Below are positions 9,146-63,998 of a stretch of DNA of 64,000 nt, in pieces. This DNA is from a virus. The position numbers and the translations under genes were made by a program. Location: the IMG/VR virus record IMGVR_UViG_3300028394_000002, positions 32,998-96,997 of that record. One strand, given 5' to 3'. The notes beneath the pieces are model-generated. The model did no database searches, was not told where the DNA came from, and saw only the letters and a list, made by a program, of their open reading frames with translations. The stretch's first letter is position 1. Each line of letters starts with the position of its first letter.

Positions 9146-12100
9146 ATGCCTGATAAAAATAAAAAACAAAGAACTAAAGTATATAGAGATAAATTAGAAT
9201 TTGATAAAGCTAATCAAGCATATGAAGATAGTACTGCTTTAGCTAAACAAAATTTTAGTTTTTTTACTGATGAAGTAAATAAACTTAATATAGGTGATAC
9301 ACTTAAAGAATATAATGAATCTTATAATAATTATTTTACTTGGAAAAAAGATTTAAAAAAAAATGAAAAAATAAGTCCAGGAAGTCTTAATACAGAAATT
9401 AAACCTGAAAAATATTTATATGATTGGGGTGAAAATTGGGGCGTAAATCCATTGTATCATATTAAAGATAAAACTAATCGTAAAGTTATACCGACTGTAG
9501 GTGAAACAGTGGATCCATCTATTAATAAAATTAATGAAGTAAAAAAAATATTTCCTAAAGCATCTCAAGCTTTTATTGATAAAAAAATTAGTGCGAGTAA
9601 ACAAGATTCTATAGGTGTAGGATATATTATTAATAGTGGGGACTATGATGAAAACTTTAAAAAGAAAACAAATCCAGCTTCTTTAGATATAAGTATTAGT
9701 AATAATGGGCCGTATATATATCCTTATTATACTGAACCAACAACTAAGCCTGTATATAAGGACCCAAAAACTTTATATACAGGAAGCAAAGCATTAAAAA
9801 TACAAGGTAAGCCAAGTGGGTATATTAATAAAGGTAATAATACTGGAAGACAAGAGTTTAGAAAAGGTGGATGGTTAGATGGATTAGATGAGGATAATCC
9901 AATACAAGATAATACAAAAGTAAAGGCTGCTGTAATTCCAAATCAAGCATTAATTCAAAGAGCTAAGTTTCTTGAAGGTGATAATTTAGAAAAAAAAATA
10001 AATAAATCTTCTAGTTATTCAAAAGATAAAGATAAAACTGCTTTAAAAAATAAGGATAAAAGAGAAAATACTGTAACCAATGTTAAAAATTCTCAAGTAG
10101 AAAAATATACAAATAAAAATGTTGCTAATAAATTTCATACAGGTTTTAAATATAATGAAATTCAAATTTCAGATAATACAAGAGTAAGCAATCCTGTAAT
10201 TCCAAATCAAACTTTAATACAAAAAAGTAATTTAAATAAAAATAAGGGAACTTTAAAAAGTATAGATAAAATGCCTGTACAACCTCTTACAAAAGAAGAA
10301 GTTAGAAAAGGGGTAAAATTTACAACTGATGTAGCAGGTATGTTTAATCCAATAATGGCTGTTGCAGGCTCTGCTATGGACATGCACCAAGGAGATAAAA
10401 CTGGAGCAGCAATTGGATTAGTTCCTGGACTTAAAAGTTTTATAGCTAGTAAAAATATGGCTACTAAATTAGCTACAAAAATGTTTAATGCAGGAATACC
10501 TAATAAAATAGTAACTCCTATTAAAAAAGGAATTAGAGAAGCTGGTAACTATATATCAGGAACTGCTGAAGTAATTGAGGCTAAAGATGATATAGGTAAA
10601 CCTATAGTAGAAACAGTAAAATCTAAATTAAGAAACGGAGGACAGTTAGATGGTTTAGATAATAATAAGACTGAACAAGCTCCAGATGTTACTAATGCTA
10701 CAGAGTATGTAAAAGGTTGGTATAACTCACCTATGTATGACAACATATTAAGAAATCAAAATATAGATTTAGGTATAACAAATCCTAATAGATTAGAAAG
10801 ACGTGTTAAACAACATAAGAAATATTACAATGAATCAAATTATAATGTTACTCCTAGTGTAGTAGAGAACTTAAAAAACTATGGAGAAGGTTACATTGAT
10901 AATAAAGGTAATAAACAAATAAACTTAAACAAGAATTTTGTACAAAACAATCCTAAATTAGTTAATAGTTTATTTGCCCATGAATTAACTCATGATAATT
11001 TAATGACTGTTAAAGATAGAGAGTATATAAATAAAAATACTCCAGAATATAATCCCGCATTACATAAAGAAGACACATATAATAAGCTTACAGATCCTGA
11101 AGAAGTAAGATCTCAGATACATTCTATTAGACAGCTAAGTGGAGAAAATAAAATTTATGACCCACTTACCCAACCTTTTAAAAAGGAATACTTAGATAAA
11201 GTAAATGAGTCTTATAATCAAGGTACTAAAGAATCTGAAGATTACAATCAATTACAAAGATTAAGACAGTATTATTCAGATGATCAGATTACTGAGATGA
11301 TGAATACTATATCTAAATCTAATTCTAATGATGGAAAGGTTTATGCAAAGAATGGTGGACTGTTAAATAGTTTATCTAAGAAGAGGTTTGACATGGGAGG
11401 CCCTGTAAATGATGAAGAAAATAGTGATATATTACCAAGTTGGGATGCAGTAAAAGCTACTTTAAATCCTTACAATTGGGGAGTAGATGATTACACTAAA
11501 AGTGGAACAAGAGGACAAGCTTTTAATGCTGCAAGAAAAGCAGGAGAAGAAGAATTTATGTGGAATAATCAAAGATATAACACAAGAAAAGATACTGATT
11601 ATATACCATATATAGGTAGCAATCCTAATCAAAAAGAATACGATAATTTTTTAAGAAAAGAATATCCTGAATTTTTTAAAACTCTTAATAGAGGTAAAAA
11701 TGTAGGTAGTATAACTTGGAAAGGAGCTTCTGACAAAGAGCCTAATAGAGCCTCTATAAAGCCAGAACAAACAAATTCTAATATTAATGTTGGAGAAAAT
11801 CCTGAAAGTGGGCATGAGTTTATAGATAATATAATTGCAGAATCTAGTCATTTAAAAGATCCTAAATTATTTGAGAATATATTTAATCCTTATGAGTACA
11901 AAACTGCATATGAATACATACGACATGGTGAAGAAAGATACAAAATACCAGGGACTGCTGAATATGATGCCCATAGATTAAGAGAGCCAGGTATGGCAAT
12001 GATAGCTTATGGAAATTTATCTCCTAATAATATAAAACAAATACAAAAAAATTTAGGAGTAAAAGATGATGGTTATTTTGGACCAGATACATATAAAGCA

Positions 12101-32500: not shown

Positions 32501-33414
32501 TTATTTTAATTAATGGTGTTAATAGTGAGAGTATCGGCCCTATAGGAGGGTTTAATGCTATTGATTATACTAGACCTTTAACTGGGGAAGTTGCTAATAA
32601 AGCTGCTGAAATTGAAGAGTACTTAAATGGTTATGAAGTTAGAAATATTATGGAAAGAATAACTGGTAAAGTTGCTGAAGTAAGTTCTAGCGGGTCTACT
32701 ACATCTACTCAACCATCTACTAGTGTTAAAGTAATTCCTCTAAATGAATCACAAAGATTTACTAGAGAATCAGCTGAAAAAGATACAGAGTATATGTATT
32801 TATTTACAGATAATGCTGGTAGAACGTCAGGCTCAGGAGTTATTGATCCTAACAGTTGGTATGCTAAAAAATATGGTGTAGATAAAAAATATGCAAGTAA
32901 AACACAAGCTGTAGCAAGAGGTCTTAAAAATGTTTATCCTATTACTACAATGGTAGATGATAAGAGAACTCAATGGACAGATGACCAATTTAATGAATAC
33001 AAGAAAATTATTGATGATGAAATAGAAACTATTAAACAGGCATCTAAGAAGTATAATGGTATTAAGTTTGGTGCAGAAATGCCTTTTGGTAAAGGTGCTA
33101 TTTCTAATATGAAAGACAGTGCTCCTAAAATATGGAATTATCTTAATACAAAACTTGCTGAAATAGGTATTGATAATACGGGAGATATACCTGTATCTAC
33201 TCAATCACAAGCTACTACTTCTACTGAAGATAAAAAAGCTGATACTTTTTATAACCTTGAAGATTTCACAAATGAGCAAAAAGTTATTATATTAGATAAT
33301 ATGATAGCTAAAAAAATGTCTGCTGATAAAAATAATGCTTTAATTCAAATAGAAGCTCAATTACTAAAAGATAGAAAATCAACTATTGAGTTTTTAAAAT
33401 CTTGTTTAACTTAA
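26599..33414 (+). CDS. Virion-packaged two-barrel DNA-dependent RNA polymerase (phi14:2 gp66-like)
   Basis: 2271 aa; LRIPNQ followed by catalytic GGDFDIDK (30841-30864); ETDG and GKQGVGIVA motifs. Confidence 0.9.
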   Translation: MAKSCPNPKHPDFKALVSQYGELNAYKLYYKNNSKIPTTQEVKEIKRLDPKVMTKFIFEGVELSTNEQSELFEGLKYYFIKNLVNNLSSLDDFSNLLDDTLSTSKFQQVYQEALLDMVSMFDGTNPRHMEIASAISRDFPTSFLADYFKFTYPEDSDHANLILNTFKVKIANLFKFKEGDEDTSFELQSSIEEVRDNWNTESLEQNRKDSFSRAIKLLISGIPKLSKQNLVDNPTGYSVDDYNNAILSDNLNLESPIAQSEANDLLMNVFVNQPADINAFMRVIKNERKTNPTIEWLHQKVFYPEQFIFDDKGNVLSLKDNNESNLPRISLINKFISSFSNTKYEFINQVINGDEIKSQNADTNNMQNRMLKEWSGQLDIAFTENKSKIINTLNDKYSSEEEILKAIGFPLASKGVITSKKKIKVLAGSKTFFEVYAAFLGEFKTFIKNGGNPIDIFQQVGKEPSTINVLATAMIEFNAPYRNDYDNQLANVSGNNVSSINLNTYQTLVINNLNRVVDLVRDELGYDGVDADTFKDVYLKRLNEIYPEILNSWSYDSIWLNKYLAKGTKITMSLIAGTTADNDGLPTSKLVESDLWSSFLNNTLENNFPAIKHADRSMFPSYSFGYGVTDIFSDIASNYTPTSNWRSIFKGYLHDYFVSELKRVRKTRGDYKAYIENYDTLGQEFLVFNGILDTFKKDASHQARLEALINSDELDFTGNNFVNKQMDSWINDYFAKTKAESRLAGINELTPGAGLNKNVISNLTESFKSKPDTFEFYDEAIELAAAKFFVGAVEQSKLFLGDPAFYKIKGFTNNLNNARQVTAEESILIYDFVKRANMQSSTKQVMIVDNVTNSYLESLFNSPNYKIKLKDGEEFFYRKKFDGTLTELVIDDPRVVAHIREELAKIYQNDLESFEAYFPKGGFEETDGYSLGNIFFAAESIFRTEGISSSRLEVVKKELKALSANSQEELYGLYEIPESFDTPEKINNYMKNVIRPFTQQKYQYVGPNYMMSKENYAQQDPETRTGVISNRKNSYGMLIPSLIRGTILEDLNIFMLKNGIDTIHFASASKVGAPIRASNTRRLFYTPTIVDGQIVGFEGFNNEPLQPGDMGTLDYRYLGKQNEIAFEIKPKVTDSTQGRKTILSGIMEDGERPIDFNGSPEQWASLSDLDKLNQSKLWNNAVEYENIYSELVEQLTVELLNEYNTTEGTNSLTINNGAKFANLIRKAAVERGSPDNILEAITDWVNDEGGLKYIESLSNYPKIQYILTSLVTNNLLILKRNGTMLAQAPSTGWESGNREASNGKAVGGAFLKFYEFSYDKDGNIIEVHPAECALPFPIEKLPGLFKKYRTKDIIKAIDLLNADIEAGFVPPIIVKGLRIPNQQFSSNDVLQVKKFLYPMYTQTIIVPNEIIVKTGGDFDIDKESLFLPFLDDNFNTISSDKLEGTKKLQARLLEVEIEMLLNPARIARFLKPITGGDIQKLAQIEQKKTLGTDNSVNKPFTDIFKIGSLVKSTLEYVGGKQGVGIVATWITFHKIMEMYNKSLKDGTKFSITSIQIGNYVQEVEDVLSALITSQVDIVKDSYSAVVNIVLDTLNPVCYMVLQGYSVSDIISVVNSPVIREYYRLRNKSNAKSISVKRGLNKKEDIIKYLSKEFPNEQNELYTWIAIEDSANKITDVKTELSADTKYQKSPSDVQALETLYKEITGENGIFSKETIDDLMNNSLLTPFIKSRELISKWFDQLYLTKSTERMRDLTEDLRAKAFDHIKNKEINSKARQRFDENLINYLIQNTKNNTQFKGKFDTLFKGDNSIARRILKAKKNPAFENNYLINQLVAQLDNKLGINENEKIDNLKLYAGKLTDSEANSLAQAFADIKKIDENLYDDLIVFNIFQSGISNSTYQLNKVLPYEAQKKVLDFIATMDVKGITNKVLADFYVKFFLANPNQINKKPKVGNIFSPFKKDFSTGKLVILINGVNSESIGPIGGFNAIDYTRPLTGEVANKAAEIEEYLNGYEVRNIMERITGKVAEVSSSGSTTSTQPSTSVKVIPLNESQRFTRESAEKDTEYMYLFTDNAGRTSGSGVIDPNSWYAKKYGVDKKYASKTQAVARGLKNVYPITTMVDDKRTQWTDDQFNEYKKIIDDEIETIKQASKKYNGIKFGAEMPFGKGAISNMKDSAPKIWNYLNTKLAEIGIDNTGDIPVSTQSQATTSTEDKKADTFYNLEDFTNEQKVIILDNMIAKKMSADKNNALIQIEAQLLKDRKSTIEFLKSCLT

Positions 33415-39772: not shown

Positions 39773-40003
39773 TTACCCTTTTAAAATTTTATTAATATTA
39801 TCTTTAATTACTACATTCTTGTAATATACTTTACTTTGATCTCGTATAGTATCTTGAATAGCCTTAATTTGCTCTTCTTTTAATCTATTACTCGCAGAAA
39901 TTTCCTCATTCATCTTATCTAATTGTATTACTGTGTTAGTAAATACCGCTAAGATTTTATTAGTACGAGATTCAAAATTACCTTTTTTAAATATAGTTAC
40001 CAT
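39773..40003 (-). CDS. Hypothetical coiled-coil protein
   Basis: 76-aa ORF packed in the operon. Confidence 0.6.
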   Translation of the reverse strand: MVTIFKKGNFESRTNKILAVFTNTVIQLDKMNEEISASNRLKEEQIKAIQDTIRDQSKVYYKNVVIKDNINKILKG

Positions 40004-53568: not shown

Positions 53569-55311
53569 TTAGTCCATTATTCTAGCTAAATGATTATCAA
53601 TAAGAGTGTAAGGTTCATCAAATAAAGATTCTTTAGGACCTGCTAAGTTTAATTTTTTATTAGCTTTAGCATCTAAAATATCTTTTACAAAGTTATTATA
53701 AAATTCAACTAGAGCTATACCATTATAATGATTCTTAACAAAATTATAAGCTTTATCTGTTGCATAACCTTTTAAAGATTTTTCTTTATTTACTTGTGTT
53801 TGAATGCTAAATGTAAGATTTTTAAGAGTCTTACTTTTATTTAAAGAAATCTCAATTCCAAATCTTTCAACTAGCTTCATATAATCTCTGTAAACAGGAA
53901 TCATAGAATGTTTAGGCCTAATTTTAAAATTATTACCAATTTGATCATGAGTTCTAATTACATACTCAGTATAATCATCATCACTAATGTTAGACTCTCC
54001 ATAAATAGTACCTCTTATATATACATTATCTAAAGTTACTGTACCTACAGTAAATTGAGTATCAGGAGGAAATATTAAATTATTTCTAGCCTCTTCCTGT
54101 ATATTAACAAGTGTAAAATGCTTACAGTTTTCATTAGTTAACTTAATAGGTAAACTAAAATCAGCTGCAATAGCATACTTACTATTTAAAGCTACATCAT
54201 CTTTAGAGGTTACTTTAATAACCTTATCTAACGGGCCTAAATTTAAGTTGTGACGCTTATTATACTTAGTATTAAAGTACTCAGCTTTATTAGAATGTCT
54301 ACCAATAGGTATAACTTTAACTTCTATTTTAGGTAGCTTTAATTCGTACTCAAAACTAGAGTTAACTAATTTCCTAACTACAGCTACTTGTGCTTTAGAG
54401 ATAATTTCTAATTCTTCAACAACAGGTTCAGAATCTGTATTAATACTAGTTCTTTCTAGCCAATCATTAAAAAGTTTTTCATCATCAGTTTCAGAACCAA
54501 GATTAAAATTCGTTTGTTGATCGCTTAAATTAAACCCTGTGTTAATACCGCAAAAACTAGGAAAATTTTCTTCTTCCTCATCTTCAATATCAACAAGATT
54601 ATGAAATTTATTACGAAGTAAGTTTGATTCAGAGCCTCTATTAGAGCTACCTCCTCTATCTTCAGTATAACTTTTATACCCACTATTAGAGAATAGATAA
54701 CCTTCATCATTTATAAAGGTACCTAAAATAATCATCTCTCTATCAGGAAACATAAAACAAACTTTCTCACCTTTTAATGAGTTAGCTAATGTTAAATTAG
54801 TAGCTATAAGTGCATGAGGAGCATTTTTTAGAGCTTCAATTTGTTTATCTGATCTAAAATAACTTAATCCCCAATTATAAGTATCACTTAAACCCTCATC
54901 AAAACATTCATACTCATATCCAGAAAATATACCATTATGAGCAAATATACCTGTTTTTACATCATCATCTTCTGTAGTTAATTCAGAAACTATGCCTATT
55001 CTACTCATAGTACTCTTTTCTCCTAGTATATATGGATGTTGATTATATATGGTTCTAGAACCGTTTGTACCCCATCTTAAATGAACTAATACTTCATCTT
55101 CAGCTTGTATGTCTTGACTCTTTAACCATCTGTAAAAATCCTGTTTACTGTGGTTATAATGCCCTTTACTCATTCTAAGTATATGAGAGGAGCTTTTTCT
55201 TACAGCTCCTCCTATACCATCTCTGTTAGTAACAATACCAGATTCAATTGCACTAAGCATGAATTTATGGTCATAAGCTACTCCAGAGGGTTTCATCATT
55301 AATAAACACAT
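53569..55311 (-). CDS. Class II (Ntn) glutamine amidotransferase with a long C-terminal extension
   Basis: Cys2 nucleophile (MCLL); NRDGIG, HLRWGT.G, HPY, HNG and SDT motifs. Confidence 0.85.
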   Translation of the reverse strand: MCLLMMKPSGVAYDHKFMLSAIESGIVTNRDGIGGAVRKSSSHILRMSKGHYNHSKQDFYRWLKSQDIQAEDEVLVHLRWGTNGSRTIYNQHPYILGEKSTMSRIGIVSELTTEDDDVKTGIFAHNGIFSGYEYECFDEGLSDTYNWGLSYFRSDKQIEALKNAPHALIATNLTLANSLKGEKVCFMFPDREMIILGTFINDEGYLFSNSGYKSYTEDRGGSSNRGSESNLLRNKFHNLVDIEDEEEENFPSFCGINTGFNLSDQQTNFNLGSETDDEKLFNDWLERTSINTDSEPVVEELEIISKAQVAVVRKLVNSSFEYELKLPKIEVKVIPIGRHSNKAEYFNTKYNKRHNLNLGPLDKVIKVTSKDDVALNSKYAIAADFSLPIKLTNENCKHFTLVNIQEEARNNLIFPPDTQFTVGTVTLDNVYIRGTIYGESNISDDDYTEYVIRTHDQIGNNFKIRPKHSMIPVYRDYMKLVERFGIEISLNKSKTLKNLTFSIQTQVNKEKSLKGYATDKAYNFVKNHYNGIALVEFYNNFVKDILDAKANKKLNLAGPKESLFDEPYTLIDNHLARIMD

Positions 55312-57134
55312 TATATTAGTTGTTTAAGTTTTAGATTAACATTAACTTCATTTTCATTTTTAATATCCTCTAAATCTACATCTTTGAATAATTCTGTCCT
55401 AATATCAATAAATTCATTAATAATTCTATATGATTTAGGATATACCTTATTCATAATATTTTTTAATGTTAGAGGCAATACTTCACCTTTTAAAGTTACT
55501 GTATTACTCATTATATCACTATGACAGTTTTCAGCAAAGCTTACTAACGCCATACAAATCTTTAACCAATTTTTAATTTTGATAAAGTTAGTACTAGCAT
55601 TGAAGCATCTAAATTCAATTGTGTTAGATGGAGGATTAGTCAATCTTGTATTAAATAGTGCAGGTATAAAATTAGCCCAGCAATATCTAATATTAGTTTG
55701 ATCGTAATTTACTTTAGCCCCTTTAGGATGATTTTTGGTTTTATTCAATTTATCACTTGGAGGGGAATCAGCAGCTTTAGTAAAAAGTTCAGTATAATAG
55801 TTATCTACTCTAATTTTCATATCCATAATGGTGTTACAACCATCAAAATTAAAATCTAGATTAGGTAATCTTCTACAATACTTGTTTTCTCTTCTACTTT
55901 TAGGTAACATATTGAAGATATCCTCTTCTAAATGTTTTAGCAGCTTAAATAATAGCACTATATTTGTACTATTGAAATCAGCGGAACCTATGTGAGTGTG
56001 TATACCACATGTGTGATTTACTTCACCCTTATTAGCTAACTCATTACAAAGAGCTTGTAAATGAGCAAATCCATGATCACCTTTTAATACCCCAGTTATA
56101 ATTTCAGGACCGTATTTCTCACCTCTAGAGTTTGTAATACTACCATCTTTCTCAACCATAATATTATAATCTTGCATCATAGTAGGAGTAAAGGTACAAT
56201 CAGCCATCTCAATTTCCACACCAAAAGTATATTTCAAGCCTTCAGTTATTAAATTAGTTGGAGAATCTAATCCAAATTTGTAATTAAAATCTTTATTAAA
56301 AGGGTTATGTCTTTTAAAGTTTTTAAACTCAGGAAAGTAATAACCATTATCATATTGACGATATCCATCACTCTTTAGCTTAGATTTAAGAATTAATTGC
56401 CCAGATCTAGGACCAATAATAAATTTATCAGAATGATCTTTTAATATTTCATCACCATTTAATAAATAAACTATTTCAGAACTATAAGCACTGCTAAGAA
56501 CTTTAAGATTACAACTAATAAGCTTTTCTTTAGCGCCTCTATTAACTGGAACATTCTCTGCTGAAAATTGTGTTTCTGATATTTGAGTTACTTTAAAAGC
56601 ATACATTTTATACTCACTAACATAAAGTTGATTATCATAAAAGCACTTAAAATGATTTGTATGGGCTAATTCAGTATTTAAAACCCATTTAAAAGAATTT
56701 TCTTGGTTATTAATTAGAATTTTAGTACATAAAGATTTAATTACAAGTTTCTTATCAGCTAAAATCATATCTTGAATATAACCTTTATTACCGAAATGAT
56801 CTGTTACTAACTGATCTTCTTTAGCTTCAAATACTCTAGGACAACCTCTATGAACATATTTTTTTATATCTTTTTTATAATAAAAAGATTTAATAGATTC
56901 AACTCTAAATAATCCTATCCCCTCTTTACGATTAAAACATGTAATTGCTATGTCACCTCCCAAACCATGCATAAAACTAACTATTTCATACTTTTTAGGT
57001 TTATTATTTGACTCTTCTAAATCACCAACTAATTCTACAAAATCTCCGATAAAGTATTTTTCCTTACCTCTTTTTAGATATTTAAATCCATTAATTTGTT
57101 CTAAGCTAGCAAGGACTCTTTCTTTTTCTTCCAT
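55311..57134 (-). CDS. Putative amidoligase (Amidoligase_2, glutamine synthetase-like COOH-NH2 ligase fold)
   Basis: TFGVEIE, DGS, PEIIT, TCGIHTHIG, SRR...YC, RY...N and TIEFR motifs. Confidence 0.88.
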   Translation of the reverse strand: MEEKERVLASLEQINGFKYLKRGKEKYFIGDFVELVGDLEESNNKPKKYEIVSFMHGLGGDIAITCFNRKEGIGLFRVESIKSFYYKKDIKKYVHRGCPRVFEAKEDQLVTDHFGNKGYIQDMILADKKLVIKSLCTKILINNQENSFKWVLNTELAHTNHFKCFYDNQLYVSEYKMYAFKVTQISETQFSAENVPVNRGAKEKLISCNLKVLSSAYSSEIVYLLNGDEILKDHSDKFIIGPRSGQLILKSKLKSDGYRQYDNGYYFPEFKNFKRHNPFNKDFNYKFGLDSPTNLITEGLKYTFGVEIEMADCTFTPTMMQDYNIMVEKDGSITNSRGEKYGPEIITGVLKGDHGFAHLQALCNELANKGEVNHTCGIHTHIGSADFNSTNIVLLFKLLKHLEEDIFNMLPKSRRENKYCRRLPNLDFNFDGCNTIMDMKIRVDNYYTELFTKAADSPPSDKLNKTKNHPKGAKVNYDQTNIRYCWANFIPALFNTRLTNPPSNTIEFRCFNASTNFIKIKNWLKICMALVSFAENCHSDIMSNTVTLKGEVLPLTLKNIMNKVYPKSYRIINEFIDIRTELFKDVDLEDIKNENEVNVNLKLKQLI

Positions 57135-58678
57135 AATTCAACAGTTTTAATATAAGTTTCACACACTTTTTCTTTCATTGTATCAAATTCATCTTTAAAA
57201 CATCTTAATGTCATTAAATCTAAATCACTTTCATGTTCTTCTATTACTCCATATAAGTCATCAAAAGAAATCATATTATCTTCACATAAATCAAAGATTT
57301 CAGATACTATTTTACTATCATCAGTAGCTTTAATAATATCATCAACACTTAAATTTTTAAGTAAGTTATTTTCTACCATAAATTGAGCTAAATAAGATTC
57401 TTCTATTTTACTAGTACTTAAAATTTCTGACTCAATAACAGGAGGATCTGTTTTTGGAGGTAATAAAGCAATATGTTTAGCATTATTAATTATATTTGAA
57501 AGATGGCGCTCATTAATCATGCAAGCTCTAACAAACTCTTTCTTTAATTCATAAACTACACCATCTACTAAACTAGTAGCACTAATACAAGAAGCTCCTT
57601 TAATAGTAGTTTCTTTTTGTTGAATATCCACTACATCTCCTTTAAAGAATACAAATTCAGAAGGTTTATCAGTTTTATGAATATTAGTCATTACAACAAC
57701 TTTAGTATTAGGCGCTAAAGGATTAATAGGTAGAAGTTTTTGATTGTAATAAAACTGAGCAAAGCCTAAAGTTAACTTGTTACCATCAATATTTTCAACA
57801 ACTAATTTACAATCAGCAACTTTAATTTCCCTTAATAAAAACCAATCATCTATTTCATACTTAATAGGATCTGTTGCTAAACTTGCTCTATCTGTTTGTA
57901 TCCAACCATTTAAATATTTAGCCCAATAAGCAGGAGCAGAGCCGCTACCAGCATACACATTACTACCGTAATTTGAGTGGTTAATAACTTTATTTTTAAG
58001 GGCTCTACTGGGTATAGCCACATCATTAATTATCCCTCCTTCAAATATAGTATATAAAATATTAGTACTAAACTCTGTAATTTCTGTACATCCAATAGCT
58101 TCTAAGCCTTCTTTTAAGCTGCTAATATACATACCTTCATTACTCATACCAAAATATAAAGGCCTTTGATTATTTAATCTAAAAGCTAATAAAAAGCTAT
58201 TTTCCTGACCTTTTTTTAATTTAATATTTTTATCAGCTACTAATAAACTAGCTGTACCATCAATCTGACTAAATATTTTAGCCCCAAAGTTACTATCCAT
58301 AATTTTATGCAGTAACTCTGTGTCAGTACCTGGATTAGTAGTATTATATTCTGTAGTTAAAGCCTCTGTATTATCTAATGTACCATTATGAGCTAACACA
58401 CAATTATCACCTTCAAAAGGATGTGCTGCAGATACAAAAGTTTTATAAGTTGAACCTGCTCTAACATGTCCTATTAAAGAACAATCAGGTATTATCTTAT
58501 TAAAATCTTTAGTAAGAAATTTAGAAGCCGCGTCTACTGATTTAACTACACCTGTTTGAGGAGTCCAGAAACCAGAAGCATCTTTACCCCTTTCTTGATT
58601 ATACATAAATAAGATCTTGACCTTATTAACATCAAATTTTTGTCCCTTATGACCACTAAAACCTATTAGTCCACACAT
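57101..58678 (-). CDS. Class II (Ntn) glutamine amidotransferase, GlmS-N-like, with a C-terminal extension
   Basis: MCGLIG, RGKDASG, GHVR, AHPF, AHNGTL, DTE and RPL motifs. Confidence 0.88.
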   Translation of the reverse strand: MCGLIGFSGHKGQKFDVNKVKILFMYNQERGKDASGFWTPQTGVVKSVDAASKFLTKDFNKIIPDCSLIGHVRAGSTYKTFVSAAHPFEGDNCVLAHNGTLDNTEALTTEYNTTNPGTDTELLHKIMDSNFGAKIFSQIDGTASLLVADKNIKLKKGQENSFLLAFRLNNQRPLYFGMSNEGMYISSLKEGLEAIGCTEITEFSTNILYTIFEGGIINDVAIPSRALKNKVINHSNYGSNVYAGSGSAPAYWAKYLNGWIQTDRASLATDPIKYEIDDWFLLREIKVADCKLVVENIDGNKLTLGFAQFYYNQKLLPINPLAPNTKVVVMTNIHKTDKPSEFVFFKGDVVDIQQKETTIKGASCISATSLVDGVVYELKKEFVRACMINERHLSNIINNAKHIALLPPKTDPPVIESEILSTSKIEESYLAQFMVENNLLKNLSVDDIIKATDDSKIVSEIFDLCEDNMISFDDLYGVIEEHESDLDLMTLRCFKDEFDTMKEKVCETYIKTVELWKKKKESLLA

Positions 58679-58689
58679 ATATTATTATT

Positions 58690-59601
58690 TTAGATAGCTT
58701 CTTCAACAGAAGCTGATTTTTTAATAGATTTATTTTCTTGCTTTTCAATAGTATAGTTGATATTATACTTATCACATAGGTATTTAGCTACATCAGAGTC
58801 ATTGTTATTAACACAATTAATGATAGCTAAGCAGTCATCCATATGCTCATCCATAACAAACTTCTCGTTATTAATTTTATCAATAGCTGCAAAAGTATTA
58901 TCAAATACAAATTTAGTATGTTCTTTACTTTGAAACCAATTAATACCTAAAGTACGTAATTCAGCTGTAACACTACCAATACGATGCTCACCCGCTTTAC
59001 CATAAAGTTTTCTACGTAAAGCCCCATTAGGATTCATTATAATACTAGGTACAGTTAGATACAAGTCTAGTACACGAAGTAAATTAATATCTGTTTCATA
59101 ACCTCTTTCTTTATAAGAAACATGAAGATGCTTACCAATTGATCTTAAATTACCATCAGTAGCTTTAGGAGATTCATTCATTTCTAAATTCCAGAAATTA
59201 AAGCTTGCTGAACATCCAAACAATCTAGCAGCATCAGTATCTAGCTCTTTATCAGAAAAGCTAATAGCATCAGCACTATCGTCATTTAAAACTATTAACC
59301 CTTTGCTTTCTATCTCTTTATTTATTTTATCTAGTATCCACTGACAATCATTATACATTTTAATATATGAATTTGTAGGTGGTAAAGTAAGCTCTAAGGC
59401 GACATTATCTTCTTGTACTCCATAACCAAGCTTTAGGAATCTAGGAAGGTCTTTCGACCCTCCTATTAATCCTACAGCACTTACATGTTCTCCAGTATTT
59501 ATATCAACTATGAAAAACTCTGGATCACTCCCTAATCTAACATTAGTAATTGGATTTAAATTATCTGGATTTAGTTTTTCTACTGTTATTTTATTATTCA
59601 T
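58690..59601 (-). CDS. phiEco32-like COOH-NH2 ligase type 2
   Basis: LGSDPEFF, IGGSK, QEDNVALE, FGC, LRSIG.HLH, RRKLYGKAG and ELRTL motifs. Confidence 0.9.
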   Translation of the reverse strand: MNNKITVEKLNPDNLNPITNVRLGSDPEFFIVDINTGEHVSAVGLIGGSKDLPRFLKLGYGVQEDNVALELTLPPTNSYIKMYNDCQWILDKINKEIESKGLIVLNDDSADAISFSDKELDTDAARLFGCSASFNFWNLEMNESPKATDGNLRSIGKHLHVSYKERGYETDINLLRVLDLYLTVPSIIMNPNGALRRKLYGKAGEHRIGSVTAELRTLGINWFQSKEHTKFVFDNTFAAIDKINNEKFVMDEHMDDCLAIINCVNNNDSDVAKYLCDKYNINYTIEKQENKSIKKSASVEEAI

Positions 59602-59602
59602 T

Positions 59603-60364
59603 TTAAGCTAATATTGATTTTTCTATTTTAATTAATTTTTGTAATCTAGGGCTTCTAGCTATTAGACTATCCACTAAAATGTCAGACAAATCGCAAGAAC
59701 TAGCTTTCTCAGGATGAAACTGAACACCAATAATAGGTAATTTTGCATGTGCAAAACCTTCTAAAATATTGTGAGCTCCGTTTTGTCTATCCCAAGAAAC
59801 AGCTTTTTCCCATAATAAAGGTATTAACTCAGTATTATGTTCTAAAGCTTGTTTACTAATTCCTTGATGATGGAAAGTATTTACAGTTGTAGTAGCATAT
59901 GTCCAAGAAGGATGAATATTTTCTTGCATATATTTTGCATTAACTACACATTTGTTAATTTCTTTATCACCATCTTCAGAATAACCATGATATGGTGTTA
60001 TGTTTTGAATAAGAGGTATACCAAAATATATTGCTAATTGTTGATATCCTAAACAAATACCAAATACAGGAGTTCCCACTTCAATATATTTAGGTAAATT
60101 ATTCTTAAAAAAGTAATCCTTAAAAGGGTCACTTGAGCCATTCATAAAGCCTGGTACAGCATTATAATGAGTGGTTTGAACATCTTGTCCACCTGGCAAT
60201 ACAACTAAATCTAAATCTTCTCTAATGTCTTCGTTTGGTGTAAGCATTTCTACTTGACCAAACTTAGCAAAATATTCAAGATAAGTTTTTTGTATTCCAA
60301 ATGAATTCTCACCTAGGCTCCAAGCTGGAATACCTATTACTGGTTTCTTAGTTTTATTTGACAT
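59603..60364 (-). CDS. Class I amidotransferase/peptidase C26 (PuuD-like gamma-glutamyl hydrolase)
   Basis: PVIGI, LPGGQDV, GICLGYQ (Cys nucleophile), VNTFHHQ and VQFHPE motifs. Confidence 0.9.
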   Translation of the reverse strand: MSNKTKKPVIGIPAWSLGENSFGIQKTYLEYFAKFGQVEMLTPNEDIREDLDLVVLPGGQDVQTTHYNAVPGFMNGSSDPFKDYFFKNNLPKYIEVGTPVFGICLGYQQLAIYFGIPLIQNITPYHGYSEDGDKEINKCVVNAKYMQENIHPSWTYATTTVNTFHHQGISKQALEHNTELIPLLWEKAVSWDRQNGAHNILEGFAHAKLPIIGVQFHPEKASSCDLSDILVDSLIARSPRLQKLIKIEKSILA

Positions 60365-60369
60365 TTTAA

Positions 60370-61179
60370 TTATTGTAAATAAGTTTTTAATTTTTCTATT
60401 TTATTACCATACTCATCAATAGAATTTAAATCTTTTTGAGCTGATTCTTTTGTAGCATCATAATACCAAACTCTTTTATTAATTGTAGAACAATAAGAAG
60501 TTCTAAAACCACTTGGCATAATTGTAGGTAAGTAATTTAATAAAATATTATATACTTGACTTAAAGTACAAGTTGGATAATAGTATCTACAAATCATAAA
60601 GATATCTCCAACACTACGTCTTTTACCTGCGGCTGTTTGAACATCTCTATTATCTACAAAGATAGTATCTTTATTTGTATTATAATCAGTAAAGAAAGCC
60701 CTCAAGAAACCTGATAAGCTTTGAGTTTTTCTATTTCTTAACAAACCTGGTAATCTAATTGAACTAGGGTTAGCTTCAATAATTTGATATTGAATATCTA
60801 AAAATAAATCGGCTTTTACTTCATCACTTAAAGCTGGTTCAACAACAGGTTCTACATATATTTGCGCGTCATTTAAAGTAATTGGTGTAGTTTGTGTATT
60901 AAGATATATAAGTACATTACCATTATCTATTATTATATACACAATTTTTCCTGTATTTCCATTTGAAGTAACTAAAATATCACCGTCTTTAAATTCTTTA
61001 TTATCAGATAACCTTTTAACACCGCCAATACTGAAATTTGCATTACATATAAAATCTGCTAAAGGTTTAGAAATAACTATATCATTAACAGTATTTACAT
61101 AATTATTTTTAGATTTTAAAATGTACTCTAAATTTGTTGATCTTGACTTAAATTTTGTAATTAAATAGTTTGTAGGCAT
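60370..61179 (-). CDS. Hypothetical protein in the amidoligase cluster
   Basis: 269 aa; KRLSD..EF..GD N-terminal segment; RRSVGD and YCSTINKRVW C-terminal domain. Confidence 0.7.
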   Translation of the reverse strand: MPTNYLITKFKSRSTNLEYILKSKNNYVNTVNDIVISKPLADFICNANFSIGGVKRLSDNKEFKDGDILVTSNGNTGKIVYIIIDNGNVLIYLNTQTTPITLNDAQIYVEPVVEPALSDEVKADLFLDIQYQIIEANPSSIRLPGLLRNRKTQSLSGFLRAFFTDYNTNKDTIFVDNRDVQTAAGKRRSVGDIFMICRYYYPTCTLSQVYNILLNYLPTIMPSGFRTSYCSTINKRVWYYDATKESAQKDLNSIDEYGNKIEKLKTYLQ

Positions 61180-62117
61180 GGGGTTTGTTTTTTAGTTAAT
61201 TGTTTATTTTTTAAAATTGATTTTTCTATATTAGTCCAAAGTTCTGTTTTAGTAGTACTTTCAACTAATCTATTGTATTGATTTTCATATTCTTCTCTAG
61301 TAAAAGTTATACCTAAAGTAAGAGGAGTTAATTGTAAAGCTTTAGTTAATTCTAGCTGATTCTTTAAATGCTCTCTAAAATTAGTAACATTTAAATCTGG
61401 ATTTAAAGTTTGTACTAAAATATTCCAAGCACTAGGACTTCCTGAAGGTATATAGTTAAATACTGGATTACCATTACTTACTGCATAATTAGTAGTTGAT
61501 GTAGTAATAGCTTCATAAGGAGTTAATCTATAAGCTACTTGTAATAATACTAGTAAATCTTTATCTGGATACAATTCAACTAGTTCTATAAATCTAGCTG
61601 GAACATGTGAACAAAAATCAACATGGAGATTTCTAATTGTTTGCCAACTAAGTTTTAAAAGAGCTTCTTCATTCCAATCTATTTTAGAGTAATCTATAAC
61701 TATACATAATTTAGTAGCAGTTATTGAAGATATTTCACAAATAAGGCCTATTTTTTGTAATAATCTAACATATAATTCTATATATTCTAGTTTAGAATAT
61801 TTATCTTTTAAAGGATTTACAAAATCAGTTAGGCTAATAGTCATTTCAGCGTAACAATTTTTAAATTGTACATTTTCTCCTGAAATACATTTATAGAATA
61901 ACCCGACTTTTTTTTGAAATTTACCTTCAAATAATACATCTCCAGATTTTTGGAAATCTACAAATATAGCTTGGCAACAGCCTTTTATTACTTTAATAAT
62001 CTCTTCTTTAGGCTCTCTTGTATCTAAACGATGGTAAACTTTAACTTTACCTCTTTCATAATCAAATAAGCCTTTTTTTATTAATTGTCTTAATACAGGT
62101 TTAGTTTTATCTTCCAT
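61161..62117 (-). CDS. Hypothetical protein in the amidoligase cluster
   Basis: 318-aa ORF overlapping both neighbours. Confidence 0.7.
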   Translation of the reverse strand: MEDKTKPVLRQLIKKGLFDYERGKVKVYHRLDTREPKEEIIKVIKGCCQAIFVDFQKSGDVLFEGKFQKKVGLFYKCISGENVQFKNCYAEMTISLTDFVNPLKDKYSKLEYIELYVRLLQKIGLICEISSITATKLCIVIDYSKIDWNEEALLKLSWQTIRNLHVDFCSHVPARFIELVELYPDKDLLVLLQVAYRLTPYEAITTSTTNYAVSNGNPVFNYIPSGSPSAWNILVQTLNPDLNVTNFREHLKNQLELTKALQLTPLTLGITFTREEYENQYNRLVESTTKTELWTNIEKSILKNKQLTKKQTPCLQTI

Positions 62118-62961
62118 TTTTACTATTAATTATTTTAGGTATTTCTATTAAATATTTTTGCAATGTGATATCACCAAAACTTGGAGCACTAGCTGATTCT
62201 ACAATTAACCAATCTGAGTTATTCTCTTTATTAGGTAAAGATACTATAACATCAAATGCGCAAATATCTAATCCTAGTGATTTTTGAGCTTTTACACAAT
62301 CTGCTACAATATCATTCCAATTGTTAGGCTTCTTAAAGCTTGGATTACTCTCTAAAGCCCAAGTAACTACATCATCATGATACTGCCAAGTATTTTCTGG
62401 GGCATCACTCTTTAGTAACTTTCTACAAGCATAGAAACAACCAAACTTACTTATATGTAATCTATACTCTCTACCAAGTGGTTGAAATTTCTCAAAGATA
62501 TAATTACTTAAATTTTTACCCACCATCCATTGTTCTAATGCTTGTTGATTATCTAGTTTATAATTACCTGTACCTCTACTACCAAATTGATGTTTAGCAA
62601 TAATAGGATAAGGTAAATTATCATAATCAATAAGATCTTCATGAATATTTATAAATGCTTGTACACCTTCTGCTTTTGTAAACCAATTAGCTGTTTTAAC
62701 ACCAGCTCTAGTAAAACATTGTTTCATCAATAACTTACTAGCACTATTCTTAATACCTTGTACACTATTAACCTCTGTTCTAACTTTACCATCATTTAGC
62801 GAGGTTGTACTACCTAACCTTACAACGCTCCTACCTTTACATAACTGTAATTGTTTTCTGAGTGGTTTATGGCTAGGATGCCTAGTTAGTACAAGAGTCC
62901 TAAAAAATGTAATAATCTTTTTAGCTTGTTTTAAGCTACTTTTTTTCTTCTTTAATATCAT
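62107..62961 (-). CDS. ATP-grasp ligase (RimK/phiEco32-like)
   Basis: NSASKL, YPIIAK..FGSRGTG, FEKF, EYRLH, LGLDICAFDV and VES.SAPS motifs. Confidence 0.85.
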   Translation of the reverse strand: MILKKKKSSLKQAKKIITFFRTLVLTRHPSHKPLRKQLQLCKGRSVVRLGSTTSLNDGKVRTEVNSVQGIKNSASKLLMKQCFTRAGVKTANWFTKAEGVQAFINIHEDLIDYDNLPYPIIAKHQFGSRGTGNYKLDNQQALEQWMVGKNLSNYIFEKFQPLGREYRLHISKFGCFYACRKLLKSDAPENTWQYHDDVVTWALESNPSFKKPNNWNDIVADCVKAQKSLGLDICAFDVIVSLPNKENNSDWLIVESASAPSFGDITLQKYLIEIPKIINSKNGR

Positions 62962-63692
62962 ATAGCTTTTTCTACTTTAAATTGTTTGTAATCTAATTTA
63001 TAAGACACTATACCTAAATTATGAGTACTTGTATCACCTTTTAAAGTACTAAAATCTTGAGGTATTGGTCCATATTTAAGTATTTCTTCTATTTTAGTAA
63101 TACTTGATCTAACTAGACTTACATCAGGTTGATAAATTTTATCACTTTTTAAGAATTTTATAGGATTAATACTTGTATCATCATAAGTTTGTCCAGCTCT
63201 TAATAACAAACTGTATAGACTTATCATATAAGTACTTTCTGCCCATATTTTAGGTAGCTCAACTAAATATAAATTATCAGATACTTCACTAATTATTGTA
63301 TTAGACTTAATATCTATATCAAGTAATTCCTCAAAATAATTAATAAAGTATTCTAAATGTTTATGATATTTAGCTAATCTATCTTTTTCAACAATAAAGT
63401 CTTTCTCATTGTAAGTATGATTATACTTGTAAGGACATATAGAGATAGCCATATATACTAGTTCACTTTCAAGTATCCCTTGTTTGCCTTTTAAATGTAA
63501 TCCATGAGCATAAATAGATTTATCAGTATTTTCAGCAAATATTACATCATTTAAATAATCTTTACAGGGACTAATAGGTTGAATAGTTTCATACTCATTT
63601 TCATTAACTATTTTACAGAAAGCGAATCCCATATTATTAGACCTACCTTCTGATAAAATGTTTCTGTTTTGGGTGTTTGTAATTTTTATCAT
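62958..63692 (-). CDS. Hypothetical protein in the amidoligase cluster (CKDYLND motif)
   Basis: 244 aa; CKDYLND, W...YMISLYSLLLR and HNLGI segments; overlaps the ATP-grasp gene start. Confidence 0.65.
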   Translation of the reverse strand: MIKITNTQNRNILSEGRSNNMGFAFCKIVNENEYETIQPISPCKDYLNDVIFAENTDKSIYAHGLHLKGKQGILESELVYMAISICPYKYNHTYNEKDFIVEKDRLAKYHKHLEYFINYFEELLDIDIKSNTIISEVSDNLYLVELPKIWAESTYMISLYSLLLRAGQTYDDTSINPIKFLKSDKIYQPDVSLVRSSITKIEEILKYGPIPQDFSTLKGDTSTHNLGIVSYKLDYKQFKVEKAI

Positions 63693-63998
63693 TTAAATAG
63701 TAATTTTTTTAACATTTTTCATATAAGTAGGCTCTATTCTACCTGTTCTTAAATTCTTCAAATAGACTACATCAAGAGGGCTATTTTTAGTATTCTTAAT
63801 GGTATACTTGTTGTTAATACTAGCAGTTATTTTAATAACTTGACATTTAGCATTTCTTTCAAAAGGTAACTTTTTGTTATTAATTAATCTAACTGTGTCA
63901 TCAACTTTAACTGTTAAATCTTTACCAAACTTTTGTAGAAAAATAACTGGTAATACTATTGTTAATGTAACATCACTATAAAGCCAACAACCTGAGCT
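63693..63998 (-). CDS. Partial hypothetical protein, 5' end outside the window
   Basis: Open from the window edge (SSGCWLYSDV...MKNVKKITI*); its TAA abuts the next ATG. Confidence 0.6.
   Translation of the reverse strand, partial: SSGCWLYSDVTLTIVLPVIFLQKFGKDLTVKVDDTVRLINNKKLPFERNAKCQVIKITASINNKYTIKNTKNSPLDVVYLKNLRTGRIEPTYMKNVKKITI

Follow-up and report, generated by a model that had tools for sequence, protein, structure and literature searches.

A predicted phiEco32/LUZ24-type amidoligase cassette, in enlarged form, among the replication genes of a crAss-like phage

A ten-gene run between the polymerase and helicase genes

The window analyzed here is a 64,000-nucleotide stretch (positions 32,998 to 96,997) of the virus record IMGVR_UViG_3300028394_000002. 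Between positions 53569 and 63998 its minus strand carries ten ORFs in one run, separated by gaps of 0-11 nt or overlapping by 1-34 nt, so that the tightly packed cluster of ligases and amidotransferases described in an earlier note on this DNA is real. The genes are listed below with their best family matches (E-values).

g1: 63693..63998, minus strand; C-terminal 101 aa of a 293-aa ORF
g2: 62958..63692, minus strand; 'CKDYLND' protein, 244 aa, of a widespread family without a characterised member
g3: 62107..62961, minus strand; RimK-like ATP-grasp ligase, 284 aa (phrog_2599 6.7e-25; TIGR00768 6.6e-9)
g4: 61161..62117, minus strand; orphan protein, 318 aa, clade-limited
g5: 60370..61179, minus strand; orphan protein, 269 aa, conserved in its C-terminal half, which contains a GKRRSxGD motif
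g6: 59603..60364, minus strand; class I glutamine amidotransferase (GATase) / peptidase C26, 253 aa (Peptidase_C26 5.1e-19; GATase 2.7e-16)
g7: 58690..59601, minus strand; phiEco32-type COOH-NH2 ligase, 303 aa (PF14395 2.4e-8; phrog_3815 2.4e-51)
g8: 57101..58678, minus strand; Ntn (class II) GATase domain at residues 1-222 (GATase_6 1.1e-10)
g9: 55311..57134, minus strand; Amidoligase_2 (GS-like) at residues ~300-585 (PF12224 9.4e-19; phrog_2443 1.5e-29)
g10: 53569..55311, minus strand; second, divergent Ntn GATase-like domain at residues 1-~210 (profile-profile match to the g8 family)

HMM and profile searches support all the enzyme-family calls of the earlier note, including that of the second Ntn GATase, which was recovered through the profile of the g8 family.

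The source genome is complete, with 96,997 bp and a 127-bp terminal repeat, and its record is circularly permuted. The linearisation of this permuted record cuts g1, which for that reason looks partial; the ORF extends over the terminal repeat to the record start and measures 293 aa at full length. No Pfam or PHROG match was obtained for g1, a homologue was seen only in the closest relative (L005), and the gene probably lies outside the cassette.

To place the phage we applied the Crassvirales criteria of a giant virion RNAP-type protein and a genome of ~95-105 kb in two opposed blocks. A 2271-aa ORF matches crAss-like phage records only, among them the phi14:2 'catalytic RNA polymerase subunit', and the coding strand flips near window position 40000, leaving two opposed blocks. 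By these sequence features the source phage is classed as crAss-like, in agreement with the earlier proposal. The predicted location among replication genes was also recovered: family searches of the flanking genes identified PolA upstream of the cassette and a DnaB-like helicase, a RecT-like protein, a primase, RusA, an exonuclease and RNR downstream, so that the cassette is flanked by the DNA polymerase gene on one side and by helicase and primase genes on the other. Because the gene run is gap-free and no terminator-like site was found on its coding strand, the cassette and the replication genes most likely form a single translationally coupled operon and are transcribed together.

Ligases, glutamine-cleaving enzymes and orphan proteins

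The ligases of the run are g3, g7 and g9. The match of g3 to the RimK family model lies under the family cut-off (35.5 versus 143.4 bits), and members of the g3 family are present in 76 of the 82 phage loci carrying a COOH-NH2 ligase that made up our comparison set. The Mg-binding motif of g3 reads E255-S-A257; E-S-A is also found in L005, and E-x-N in 68 other family members. As g3 lacks the Asn of this Mg-binding motif, its activity may be weakened. The earlier statement that the catalytic motifs look intact therefore holds for Cys2 of the Ntn enzymes and for Cys104, His217 and Glu219 of the C26 enzyme, but not for the ATP-grasp protein. With a score of 34 bits against a PF14395 cut-off of 25, g7 keeps all the family-invariant Glu, His and Arg residues. 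Across 185,579 prokaryotic species its family was found at 26 loci, nearly all on MAG contigs and with a phage-type gene content wherever the contig was long enough to judge, and the COOH-NH2 ligase family is essentially confined to phages. Conserved residues of g9 are E307, E309, D330, E344, H379, H381, E507 and R509; the protein has a clade-specific N-terminal extension of ~300 aa, and its gene overlaps that of g8 by 34 nt.

Three of the proteins belong to glutamine-cleaving families. The Cys104, His217 and Glu219 triad of g6 is conserved, and its family adjoins the COOH-NH2 ligase, or sits one gene off, in 57 of 69 loci. In the g8 family C2, R30, H71, R73, N98, G99 and D119 are invariant, and g8 itself retains the complete set of glutamine-binding residues. 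The family profile hits PurF in the PDB (7e-18), and the best structural matches of the g8 model are the GlmS glutaminase domain (Z 26), PurF (Z 25.4) and EgtC (Z 22.8), the glutaminase domain, which is modelled with confidence, superposing on GlmS, PurF, EgtC and AsnB at Z 20-26. Past this domain the AF2 model shows a beta region of poor quality followed by a helical hairpin, with pLDDT below 50 at residues 225-323 and 384-430. No synthase (acceptor) domain was recognised in this remainder, which is poorly modelled and could therefore still hold a small acceptor domain.

The second Ntn protein, g10, aligns with the g8 family over residues 15-209 (hhalign probability 93.3%, E 2.6e-7). Cys2 is present in six of the seven family members of a first alignment, and in a second alignment of nine sequences C2, H77, R79, H125-N126-G127 and D143 are all invariant and pair with the corresponding g8 residues in the profile-profile comparison. 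Curated models gave no Pfam match and a weak NCBIfam hit (GlmS, E 0.073), and the best PDB match of the profile was weak (1te5, E 0.052). The C-terminal half of g10 is variable, and the family is found 3' of Amidoligase_2 in about 10 loci. We take g10 to be a probable divergent Ntn GATase paralogue, the match to the g8 family being its sole family-level support. For the C26 and Ntn enzymes alike, the residues present would be compatible with an amidotransferase or with a gamma-glutamyl hydrolase role.

Nothing in Pfam, PHROG or NCBIfam matched g2, g4 or g5. Not one of the 146 homologues collected for g2 contains a Pfam domain; C43, K44, D45, Y46, E54, W150, S158, R165 and H224 are invariant, and in many loci the family adjoins the COOH-NH2 ligase. 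The AF2 model of g2 (pLDDT 95, pTM 0.92) had no match in the PDB with Foldseek. In the VIA wide search the best 15 matches were all GS, gamma-GCS or PafA/Dop, at weak scores (Z 6.3-4.0, rmsd 4.3-5.9 A) and headed by Dop (Z 6.3) and PafA (Z 5.8), and a second structure search again ranked GS at the top (Z 5.5). Compared by hhalign with the GS-fold ligases of the cassette itself, g2 gave no match (probability 0.7% for the g7 family and 0.1% for the g9 family); in the same comparison the g7 and g9 families reached only 20.8% with each other. From its model, g2 is possibly a miniature ligase-like protein of GS/GCS/PafA fold. Homologues of g4 are confined to L005 and L114-L116 (38% identity, E 2e-48), and an Atlas search with g4 was without result. 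The 40 homologues of g5 likewise contain no Pfam domain, and g5 had no match in the PDB or Pfam; invariant residues of its family include R187, R188, S189, G191, D192, Y199, Y200, R226, S228, C230 and K235, and the family occurs in 13 of the 82 COOH-NH2 ligase loci.

The cassette in other phages

The earlier note had proposed that two types of module are merged in this phage and that their distribution in relatives should be mapped. In our comparison set the COOH-NH2 ligase is accompanied by an Ntn GATase in 80/82 loci, by Amidoligase_2 in 76/82 and by an ATP-grasp ligase in 76/82. The genes do co-occur in relatives, but as a widespread cassette and not as a merger; a fusion special to this phage is not supported, these four enzymes being the standard cassette content. 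In 74 of 76 loci the Amidoligase_2 gene directly neighbours that of the Ntn GATase, a class I GATase is present in 69/82 and a GGACT-type cyclotransferase in 41/82. This set of genes appears together in the annotations of PhiCHU, IME267, UFV-P2, TC6 and crAssphage cr108_1, and also in those of LUZ24-, phiEco32- and PA11-type phages. Genome analysis had brought the cassette to light by 2009, a description attributed to Iyer, Abhiman, Burroughs and Aravind (2009, Mol Biosyst).

By its gene content, then, the ten-gene run is classed as an enlarged phiEco32/LUZ24-type amidoligase cassette. As in the phiEco32, LUZ24-PaP3-tf and PA11-TC6 cassettes, an ATP-grasp ligase, a COOH-NH2 ligase, Amidoligase_2, an Ntn GATase and a class I GATase are present, the genes are co-directional and beside replication genes, the Ntn GATase adjoins Amidoligase_2, and the distribution is phage-only. 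Unlike those loci, the present one has a second Ntn paralogue (g10) after Amidoligase_2, a ~300-aa N-terminal extension on Amidoligase_2 (g9) and E-S-A in place of the ATP-grasp E-x-N, and it has g2, g4 and g5 where the podovirus-type loci have other small proteins. It also differs from many of them in lacking the optional gamma-glutamyl cyclotransferase: a search upstream for this gene had been suggested, and AIG2/GGACT (PF06094) had no match at E <= 1 in the complete 96,997-bp genome, while control genomes did match. The extended architecture is also found in L005/L113 and L114-L116, and on this gene-content evidence the enlarged form is assigned to a small clade of ~97-kb crAss-like phages.

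Among annotated proteins, the nearest relative of g7 (36% identity) is encoded by crAssphage cr108_1 (NC_055878, Steigviridae, Pipoluvirus), where gp028-gp034 follow the order seen here: ATP-grasp, two unknowns, class I GATase, COOH-NH2 ligase, Ntn GATase and Amidoligase_2, the last being a 487-aa protein that we assigned with a profile made here. Both cassettes sit inside the replication module, that of cr108_1 after the primase and before UDG and the present one between polymerase and helicase. The two cr108_1 unknowns belong to another family (f0) without profile similarity to g4 or g5, and cr108_1 has neither g2 nor a second Ntn protein.

Possible functions of the cassette

Several outputs can be considered. 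We regard it as unlikely that the enzymes act on the envelope, amidating or extending peptidoglycan precursors or another envelope component so as to alter the wall and exclude superinfecting phages. Known peptidoglycan amidations do couple a GATase with an ATP-dependent ligase (MurT/GatD; AsnB-type LtsA), and the presence of the cassette in phages of many bacterial phyla is consistent with a universal target. According to a secondary source (PMC10580990), a cell-wall modification that would block superinfection was suggested for the amidoligase and GATase of phiEco32, a reading it credits to Iyer et al. 2009. No signal peptides and no Mur-ligase, transpeptidase or lipid-carrier genes were found in or beside the cassette, however, nothing was found that ties the enzymes to UDP-MurNAc-peptides, and slow wall remodelling would be of little benefit to a strictly lytic phage. 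Protein tagging appears quite unlikely. Here the ligases would place a glutamate or short peptide on a protein of the host or the phage, as RimK does with ribosomal protein S6 or as happens in PafA/Dop pupylation, and the amidotransferase-like enzymes would be deamidases or de-tagging peptidases. The top ATP-grasp matches do belong to the RimK/LysX family, which acts on protein C-termini, the g2 model finds its best matches in Dop and PafA, and protein-modifying peptide ligases in phages have been predicted in papers of the Aravind group. But the g2 match is weak and equally good for GS and gamma-GCS, the RimK-family score is far under its cut-off, the ATP-grasp Mg site is altered, and the operon, which leaves no gaps, does not contain a small ORF for a carrier or tag ending in an acidic residue or Gln.

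A role in auxiliary nitrogen or glutamine metabolism, or in making or destroying a small signalling molecule against host defence, by which host glutamine/glutamate pools would be re-routed or infection otherwise favoured, seems distinctly improbable. Papers on marine and deep-sea phages count the genes for amidoligase and GATase among the auxiliary metabolic genes, and one cyanophage copy adjoins the NAD-salvage genes PncB and PrsA; yet a phage-only family without cellular orthologues is unlike a borrowed metabolic gene, five to ten co-evolving genes are many for simple pool manipulation, and none of the ten proteins matches a PADLOC model. Nucleotide or DNA hypermodification, with the cassette attaching an amino acid or amide to a base, would account for its location in the replication region, where its neighbours are the DNA polymerase and the helicase/primase genes here and primase, UDG and RNR in relatives, and glutamyl- and putrescinyl-thymine do occur in other phages. 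We nevertheless consider it very improbable: the complete genome has neither a thymidylate-synthase-like hydroxymethylase gene nor a TGT/DpdA homologue, and family searches of the cassette revealed neither a kinase nor a glycosylase-like transferase.

The explanation that we favor, while holding it at somewhat less than even odds, is that the cassette uses glutamate or glutamine to assemble an amide or short non-ribosomal peptide on a small molecule of the cytoplasm and then amidates or trims it, as an enlarged copy of the phiEco32/LUZ24-type system. In line with the earlier note, the literature that we found reports no product, substrate or phenotype for any copy of the cassette; starting from the observed families, catalytic residues, synteny and phage-only distribution, we therefore infer every biochemical step, with the enzyme pairings, step order and type of substrate, from family membership. 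The COOH-NH2 ligase g7 (GCS2/YbdK-like) and the ATP-grasp protein g3 (RimK/GshB-like) would form successive ATP-dependent amide bonds in the style of glutathione synthesis, and g2 may join g7 as a fourth ligase-like protein, with a minimal GS fold. Amidoligase_2 (g9) would activate a carboxylate and its constant neighbour g8 would provide glutamine-derived ammonia, the two amounting to an asparagine-synthetase-like amidation unit split over two proteins. The C26-type g6 and the extra Ntn protein g10 may supply ammonia to the other ligases or remove gamma-glutamyl groups, a step that could be served by the gamma-glutamyl cyclotransferase in many relatives.

Cellular gamma-glutamyl pathways offer a comparison, namely GshA/GshB glutathione synthesis, the PuuA/PuuD gamma-glutamyl-putrescine cycle and AsnB-type glutamine-dependent amidation. 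As in these, a GS/GCS-fold ligase, an ATP-grasp ligase, a C26 gamma-glutamyl hydrolase fold and an Ntn glutaminase fold are combined; unlike them, the phage ligase and glutaminase are separate polypeptides, and the phage proteins are not orthologous and score far under the cellular family cut-offs. In all, hundreds of phages carry an amide-ligase cassette of this kind beside their replication genes.

Gene content, layout and genomic setting of the cassette

The tightly packed cluster described in the earlier note proved to be real: ten ORFs, named g1 (at the window end) to g10, fill 53569-63998 on the - strand with gaps of 0-11 nt and overlaps of 1-34 nt. No terminator-like site was found on this strand over 53569-63998, and promoter-like matches on the region were fewer than the shuffled expectation. 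Together with the tight spacing, this fits a single translationally coupled operon. The enzymes of the cassette, with the evidence for each family, are the following.

Enzymes encoded by the cassette (window coordinates)
62107-62961, - strand: g3, RimK-like ATP-grasp (phrog_2599, 6.7e-25; TIGR00768, 6.6e-9, under the cut-off)
59603-60364, - strand: g6, class I GATase (Peptidase_C26, 5.1e-19; GATase, 2.7e-16; Cys104-His217-Glu219 triad)
58690-59601, - strand: g7, phiEco32-type COOH-NH2 ligase (PF14395, 2.4e-8; phrog_3815, 2.4e-51)
57101-58678, - strand: g8, Ntn glutaminase domain of PurF/GlmS type (profile, conserved residues and AF2 model)
55311-57134, - strand: g9, Amidoligase_2 in the C-terminal half (9.4e-19; family-invariant Glu, His and Arg present)
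53569-55311, - strand: g10, second, divergent Ntn GATase (profile-profile comparison; without library match)

By these checks, all the enzyme calls made beforehand from sequence were right, including that of the second Ntn enzyme. The g8 family profile matched PurF at 7e-18, C2, R30, H71, R73, N98, G99 and D119 are invariant in this family, and of the AF2 models made for g8 and g2, that of g8 matched GlmS at Z 26. The COOH-NH2 ligase profile found no match among PDB sequences, BLASTP revealed no domains in common between cassette proteins, and PADLOC returned zero matches for any of ten query proteins (g2-g10 plus d1). The catalytic motifs had also been described as intact, which holds for the g6 triad and for Cys2 of g8 and g10 but not for g3, in which the Mg-binding E-x-N motif reads E-S-A (residues 255-257, window 62193-62201). 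The closest relative, L005, has the same change, while the Asn is kept in 68/68 other aligned ATP-grasp family members and in the homologue of the related phage L114. The ATP-grasp enzyme may, judging from this motif, be weakened in the sub-lineage formed by this phage and L005.

The virus record is 96,997 bp long with a 127-bp direct terminal repeat, whose copies (window 63872-63998 and genome 1-127) both lie inside ORF g1. The ends of the record thus mark where the assembly opened a circular or permuted genome; they are not physical termini placed between genes. The window, bases 32998-96997 of the record, ends at this cut point. Once the junction is closed, g1, which is partial at the window end, becomes an ORF of 293 aa. 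A search of the phage collection for near-identical DNA gave no match. A 2271-aa protein of this phage matches exclusively records of crAss-like phages, among them the RNAP subunit of Cellulophaga phi14:2; on this sequence criterion the phage is crAss-like, as had been claimed, though distantly so. A family-A DNA polymerase and an ORF for an HNH endonuclease are located upstream of the cassette, over the junction, and downstream are genes for a DnaB-like helicase, a RecT-like protein, a primase, RusA, exonucleases, RNR and PhoH. With the polymerase on one side and helicase, primase and RNR on the other, the cassette lies within the replication module, in agreement with its earlier placement upstream of the replication genes.

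The polymerase gene itself, at the genome start and outside the window (L002, this genome, 724-3468), is in two pieces: an N-part of 553 aa (genome 1807-3468, Pfam positions 31-304) and a C-part in a 96-aa frame (genome 724-972, Pfam positions 304-380), with the HNH endonuclease ORF between them (genome 1033-1596). The arrangement suggests that an intron or a homing endonuclease has inserted here. We considered g1 as the lost C-terminus of the split polymerase and rejected it, the C-part being located upstream of g1. At the same site L005 (1501-3459) and L114 (7033-8949) encode an unrelated protein of 652 and 638 aa, respectively, starting ...VWVYDIETL, which we take to be a PolB-like exonuclease motif. 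This suggests a polymerase-type swap between this phage and its close crAss-like relatives.

Distribution of the cassette

We searched IMG/VR with the COOH-NH2 ligase alignment, which gave 80 loci, added two annotated phage loci, and labelled the ORFs of these 82 loci by profiles that started from the proteins of the window and were iterated.

Gene families found in the loci with a COOH-NH2 ligase
Ntn GATase: 80/82
Amidoligase_2: 76/82
ATP-grasp: 76/82
class I GATase: 69/82
GGACT-type gamma-glutamyl cyclotransferase (PF06094, 5.7e-15): 41/82

The Ntn GATase adjoins Amidoligase_2 in 74 of 76 loci. The gene set of this phage's cassette core is likewise annotated in crAssphage cr108_1, in the LUZ24-like phages PhiCHU and UFV-P2, in the phiEco32-like phage IME267 and in the PA11-type phage TC6. 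Among 185,579 prokaryote species genomes the COOH-NH2 ligase family occurs in only 26 loci, nearly all of them MAG contigs with phage-type gene content where they are long enough to judge. Taken together, the co-occurrence in the 82 loci, the annotated phages and these phage-like prokaryote loci indicate, at the level of gene content, that the cassette is a single conserved, phage-only unit. The interpretation of the earlier note was thus right in part only, and its headline, that two module types are merged in this phage, has to be abandoned because the same set is standard in the 82 loci and in annotated phages. Papers citing the prediction of the cassette attribute it to Iyer et al. 2009, and the locus studied here is an enlarged variant of this already known cassette. 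Its gene order, g2-g3-g4-(g5)-g6-g7-g8-g9-g10, is common to a small clade (L005/L113 and L114-L116, contigs up to 97.8 kb).

Two loci arrangements were observed in passing. The COOH-NH2 ligase gene is cut in two, for example into 150 aa and 108 aa, by a 190-295-aa ORF of family f14 around positions 10000-11900 in each of L074, L076, L079-L081, L083 and L084; a further mobile intron or homing endonuclease has probably inserted there. In the cyanophage Lbo-JY46 of Leptolyngbya (L004:3748-7957) the NAD-salvage genes PncB and PrsA are followed immediately by the cassette, made up of GATase, GGCT, ligase, ATP-grasp, Ntn GATase, amidoligase and a g2-like gene.

Accessory proteins and the second Ntn enzyme

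The family of the 'CKDYLND' protein g2 numbers 146 proteins or more, all of them lacking a Pfam domain; C43, K44, D45, Y46, E54, W150, S158, R165 and H224 are invariant. According to the genomic surroundings of its homologues, taken from the search for related loci, the family adjoins the COOH-NH2 ligase in many loci. The AF2 model of g2 is very confident (pLDDT 95, pTM 0.92). Foldseek found no solved relative of this model; in an exhaustive structural scan the top 15 rows were 15 GS, gamma-GCS or PafA/Dop chains, all weak (Z 6.3-4.0), and a second structural look again placed GS at the top. Comparison of the g2 profile with those of g7 and g9 gave nothing. On balance we lean slightly towards g2 being a miniature GS-fold, ligase-like partner, as its model suggests. 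A second cassette type was seen in L063, L091, L096-L098, L103 and L104, with the order g2-g2, COOH-NH2 ligase, class I GATase, x, GGACT, class I GATase; it is without Ntn GATase, Amidoligase_2 and ATP-grasp, and its two g2 genes are sometimes one fused double g2 of 528-553 aa.

The orphan protein g4 is confined to this clade, while the g5 family has 40 members with a conserved C-terminal half containing GKRRSxGD. Profiles of g1, g2, g4 and g5 all gave less than 2% probability against the recurrent accessory families f0, f1 (GGACT), f13, f16, f18, f19 and f33, which rules out g4 and g5 as divergent copies of the cr108_1-type unknowns. A Protein Atlas search with g4 returned nothing and one with g5 a faint Tudor-like hint only, too weak to rely on (TM 0.35); the g5 profile had no match in PDB or Pfam.

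The kinship of g10 with g8 is visible only by profile-profile comparison with the g8 family (93.3% probability, E 2.6e-7), BLASTP between the two and phmmer of g10 against PDB giving no match. Across nine g10 relatives Cys2, His77/Arg79, His125-Asn126-Gly127 and Asp143 are invariant. The g10 gene directly follows Amidoligase_2, g10-like proteins occur in about ten loci, and in L119 a g10-type protein is the sole Ntn partner. The gamma-glutamyl cyclotransferase that the earlier note proposed to look for upstream of the window is missing: the whole 96,997-bp genome has no GGACT gene. As to whether the second Ntn enzyme takes the cyclotransferase's place, GGACT was present in the first locus set in 2/6 loci with a g10-type protein versus 39/76 without, small numbers from closely related loci. 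Separately, the Ntn GATase ORFs of L008, L024, L042, L045, L069 and L072 carry a hydrophobic leader of about 25 residues ahead of the catalytic Cys; either the start is mis-called or the leader is a membrane anchor or a propeptide removed by cleavage.

Possible chemistry and significance

Retention of the entire glutamine-binding residue set in g8, the lack of a recognised synthase domain past residue 222 (where a beta region, modelled poorly, and a helical hairpin make up the rest) and the near-constant adjacency to Amidoligase_2 make a split glutamine-dependent amidation unit the most economical reading of g8 and g9. In such a unit Amidoligase_2 would use ATP to activate a carboxylate, and g8 would deliver the ammonia. 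Further amide bonds would come from the COOH-NH2 ligase and the ATP-grasp enzyme, and the C26-type enzyme, the extra Ntn enzyme and the cyclotransferase of relatives could supply ammonia or remove gamma-glutamyl groups. By analogy, we infer that the cassette would at all these steps apply glutathione- or Puu-like logic to a cytoplasmic small molecule. The alternative that it modifies DNA is weakened, as the complete genome has neither a thymidylate-synthase-like gene nor a TGT/DpdA gene. A more elaborate version of the small-molecule reading, which we consider unlikely, takes g2 and its 146 or more homologues as a hitherto unrecognised, widespread miniature GS-fold ligase family that partners the COOH-NH2 ligase. 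In this clade four ligase-type proteins, namely the ATP-grasp, the COOH-NH2 ligase, Amidoligase_2 and g2, and three Cys-nucleophile amidotransferases/hydrolases could then form a ribosome-independent assembly line for a defined tri- or tetrapeptide-like amide, the second Ntn enzyme performing the deprotection step in the cyclotransferase's stead.

The literature found on phages carrying the cassette reports no product, which makes the cassette a real question for phage biochemistry. Hundreds of lytic phages that are unrelated to one another devote 6-10 kb to it, which in 45-kb podoviruses is more than a tenth of the genome. Its core is constant, with the Ntn GATase and Amidoligase_2 behaving as a constant pair, while accessory genes change, the cyclotransferase being found in half of the loci and the second Ntn enzyme in few. 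The 'CKDYLND' family, which folds well and recurs as a partner of the COOH-NH2 ligase, merits a name and an assay. For study of the cassette, phages of E. coli and Pseudomonas that are in culture and share its core are much better suited than the copy described here.
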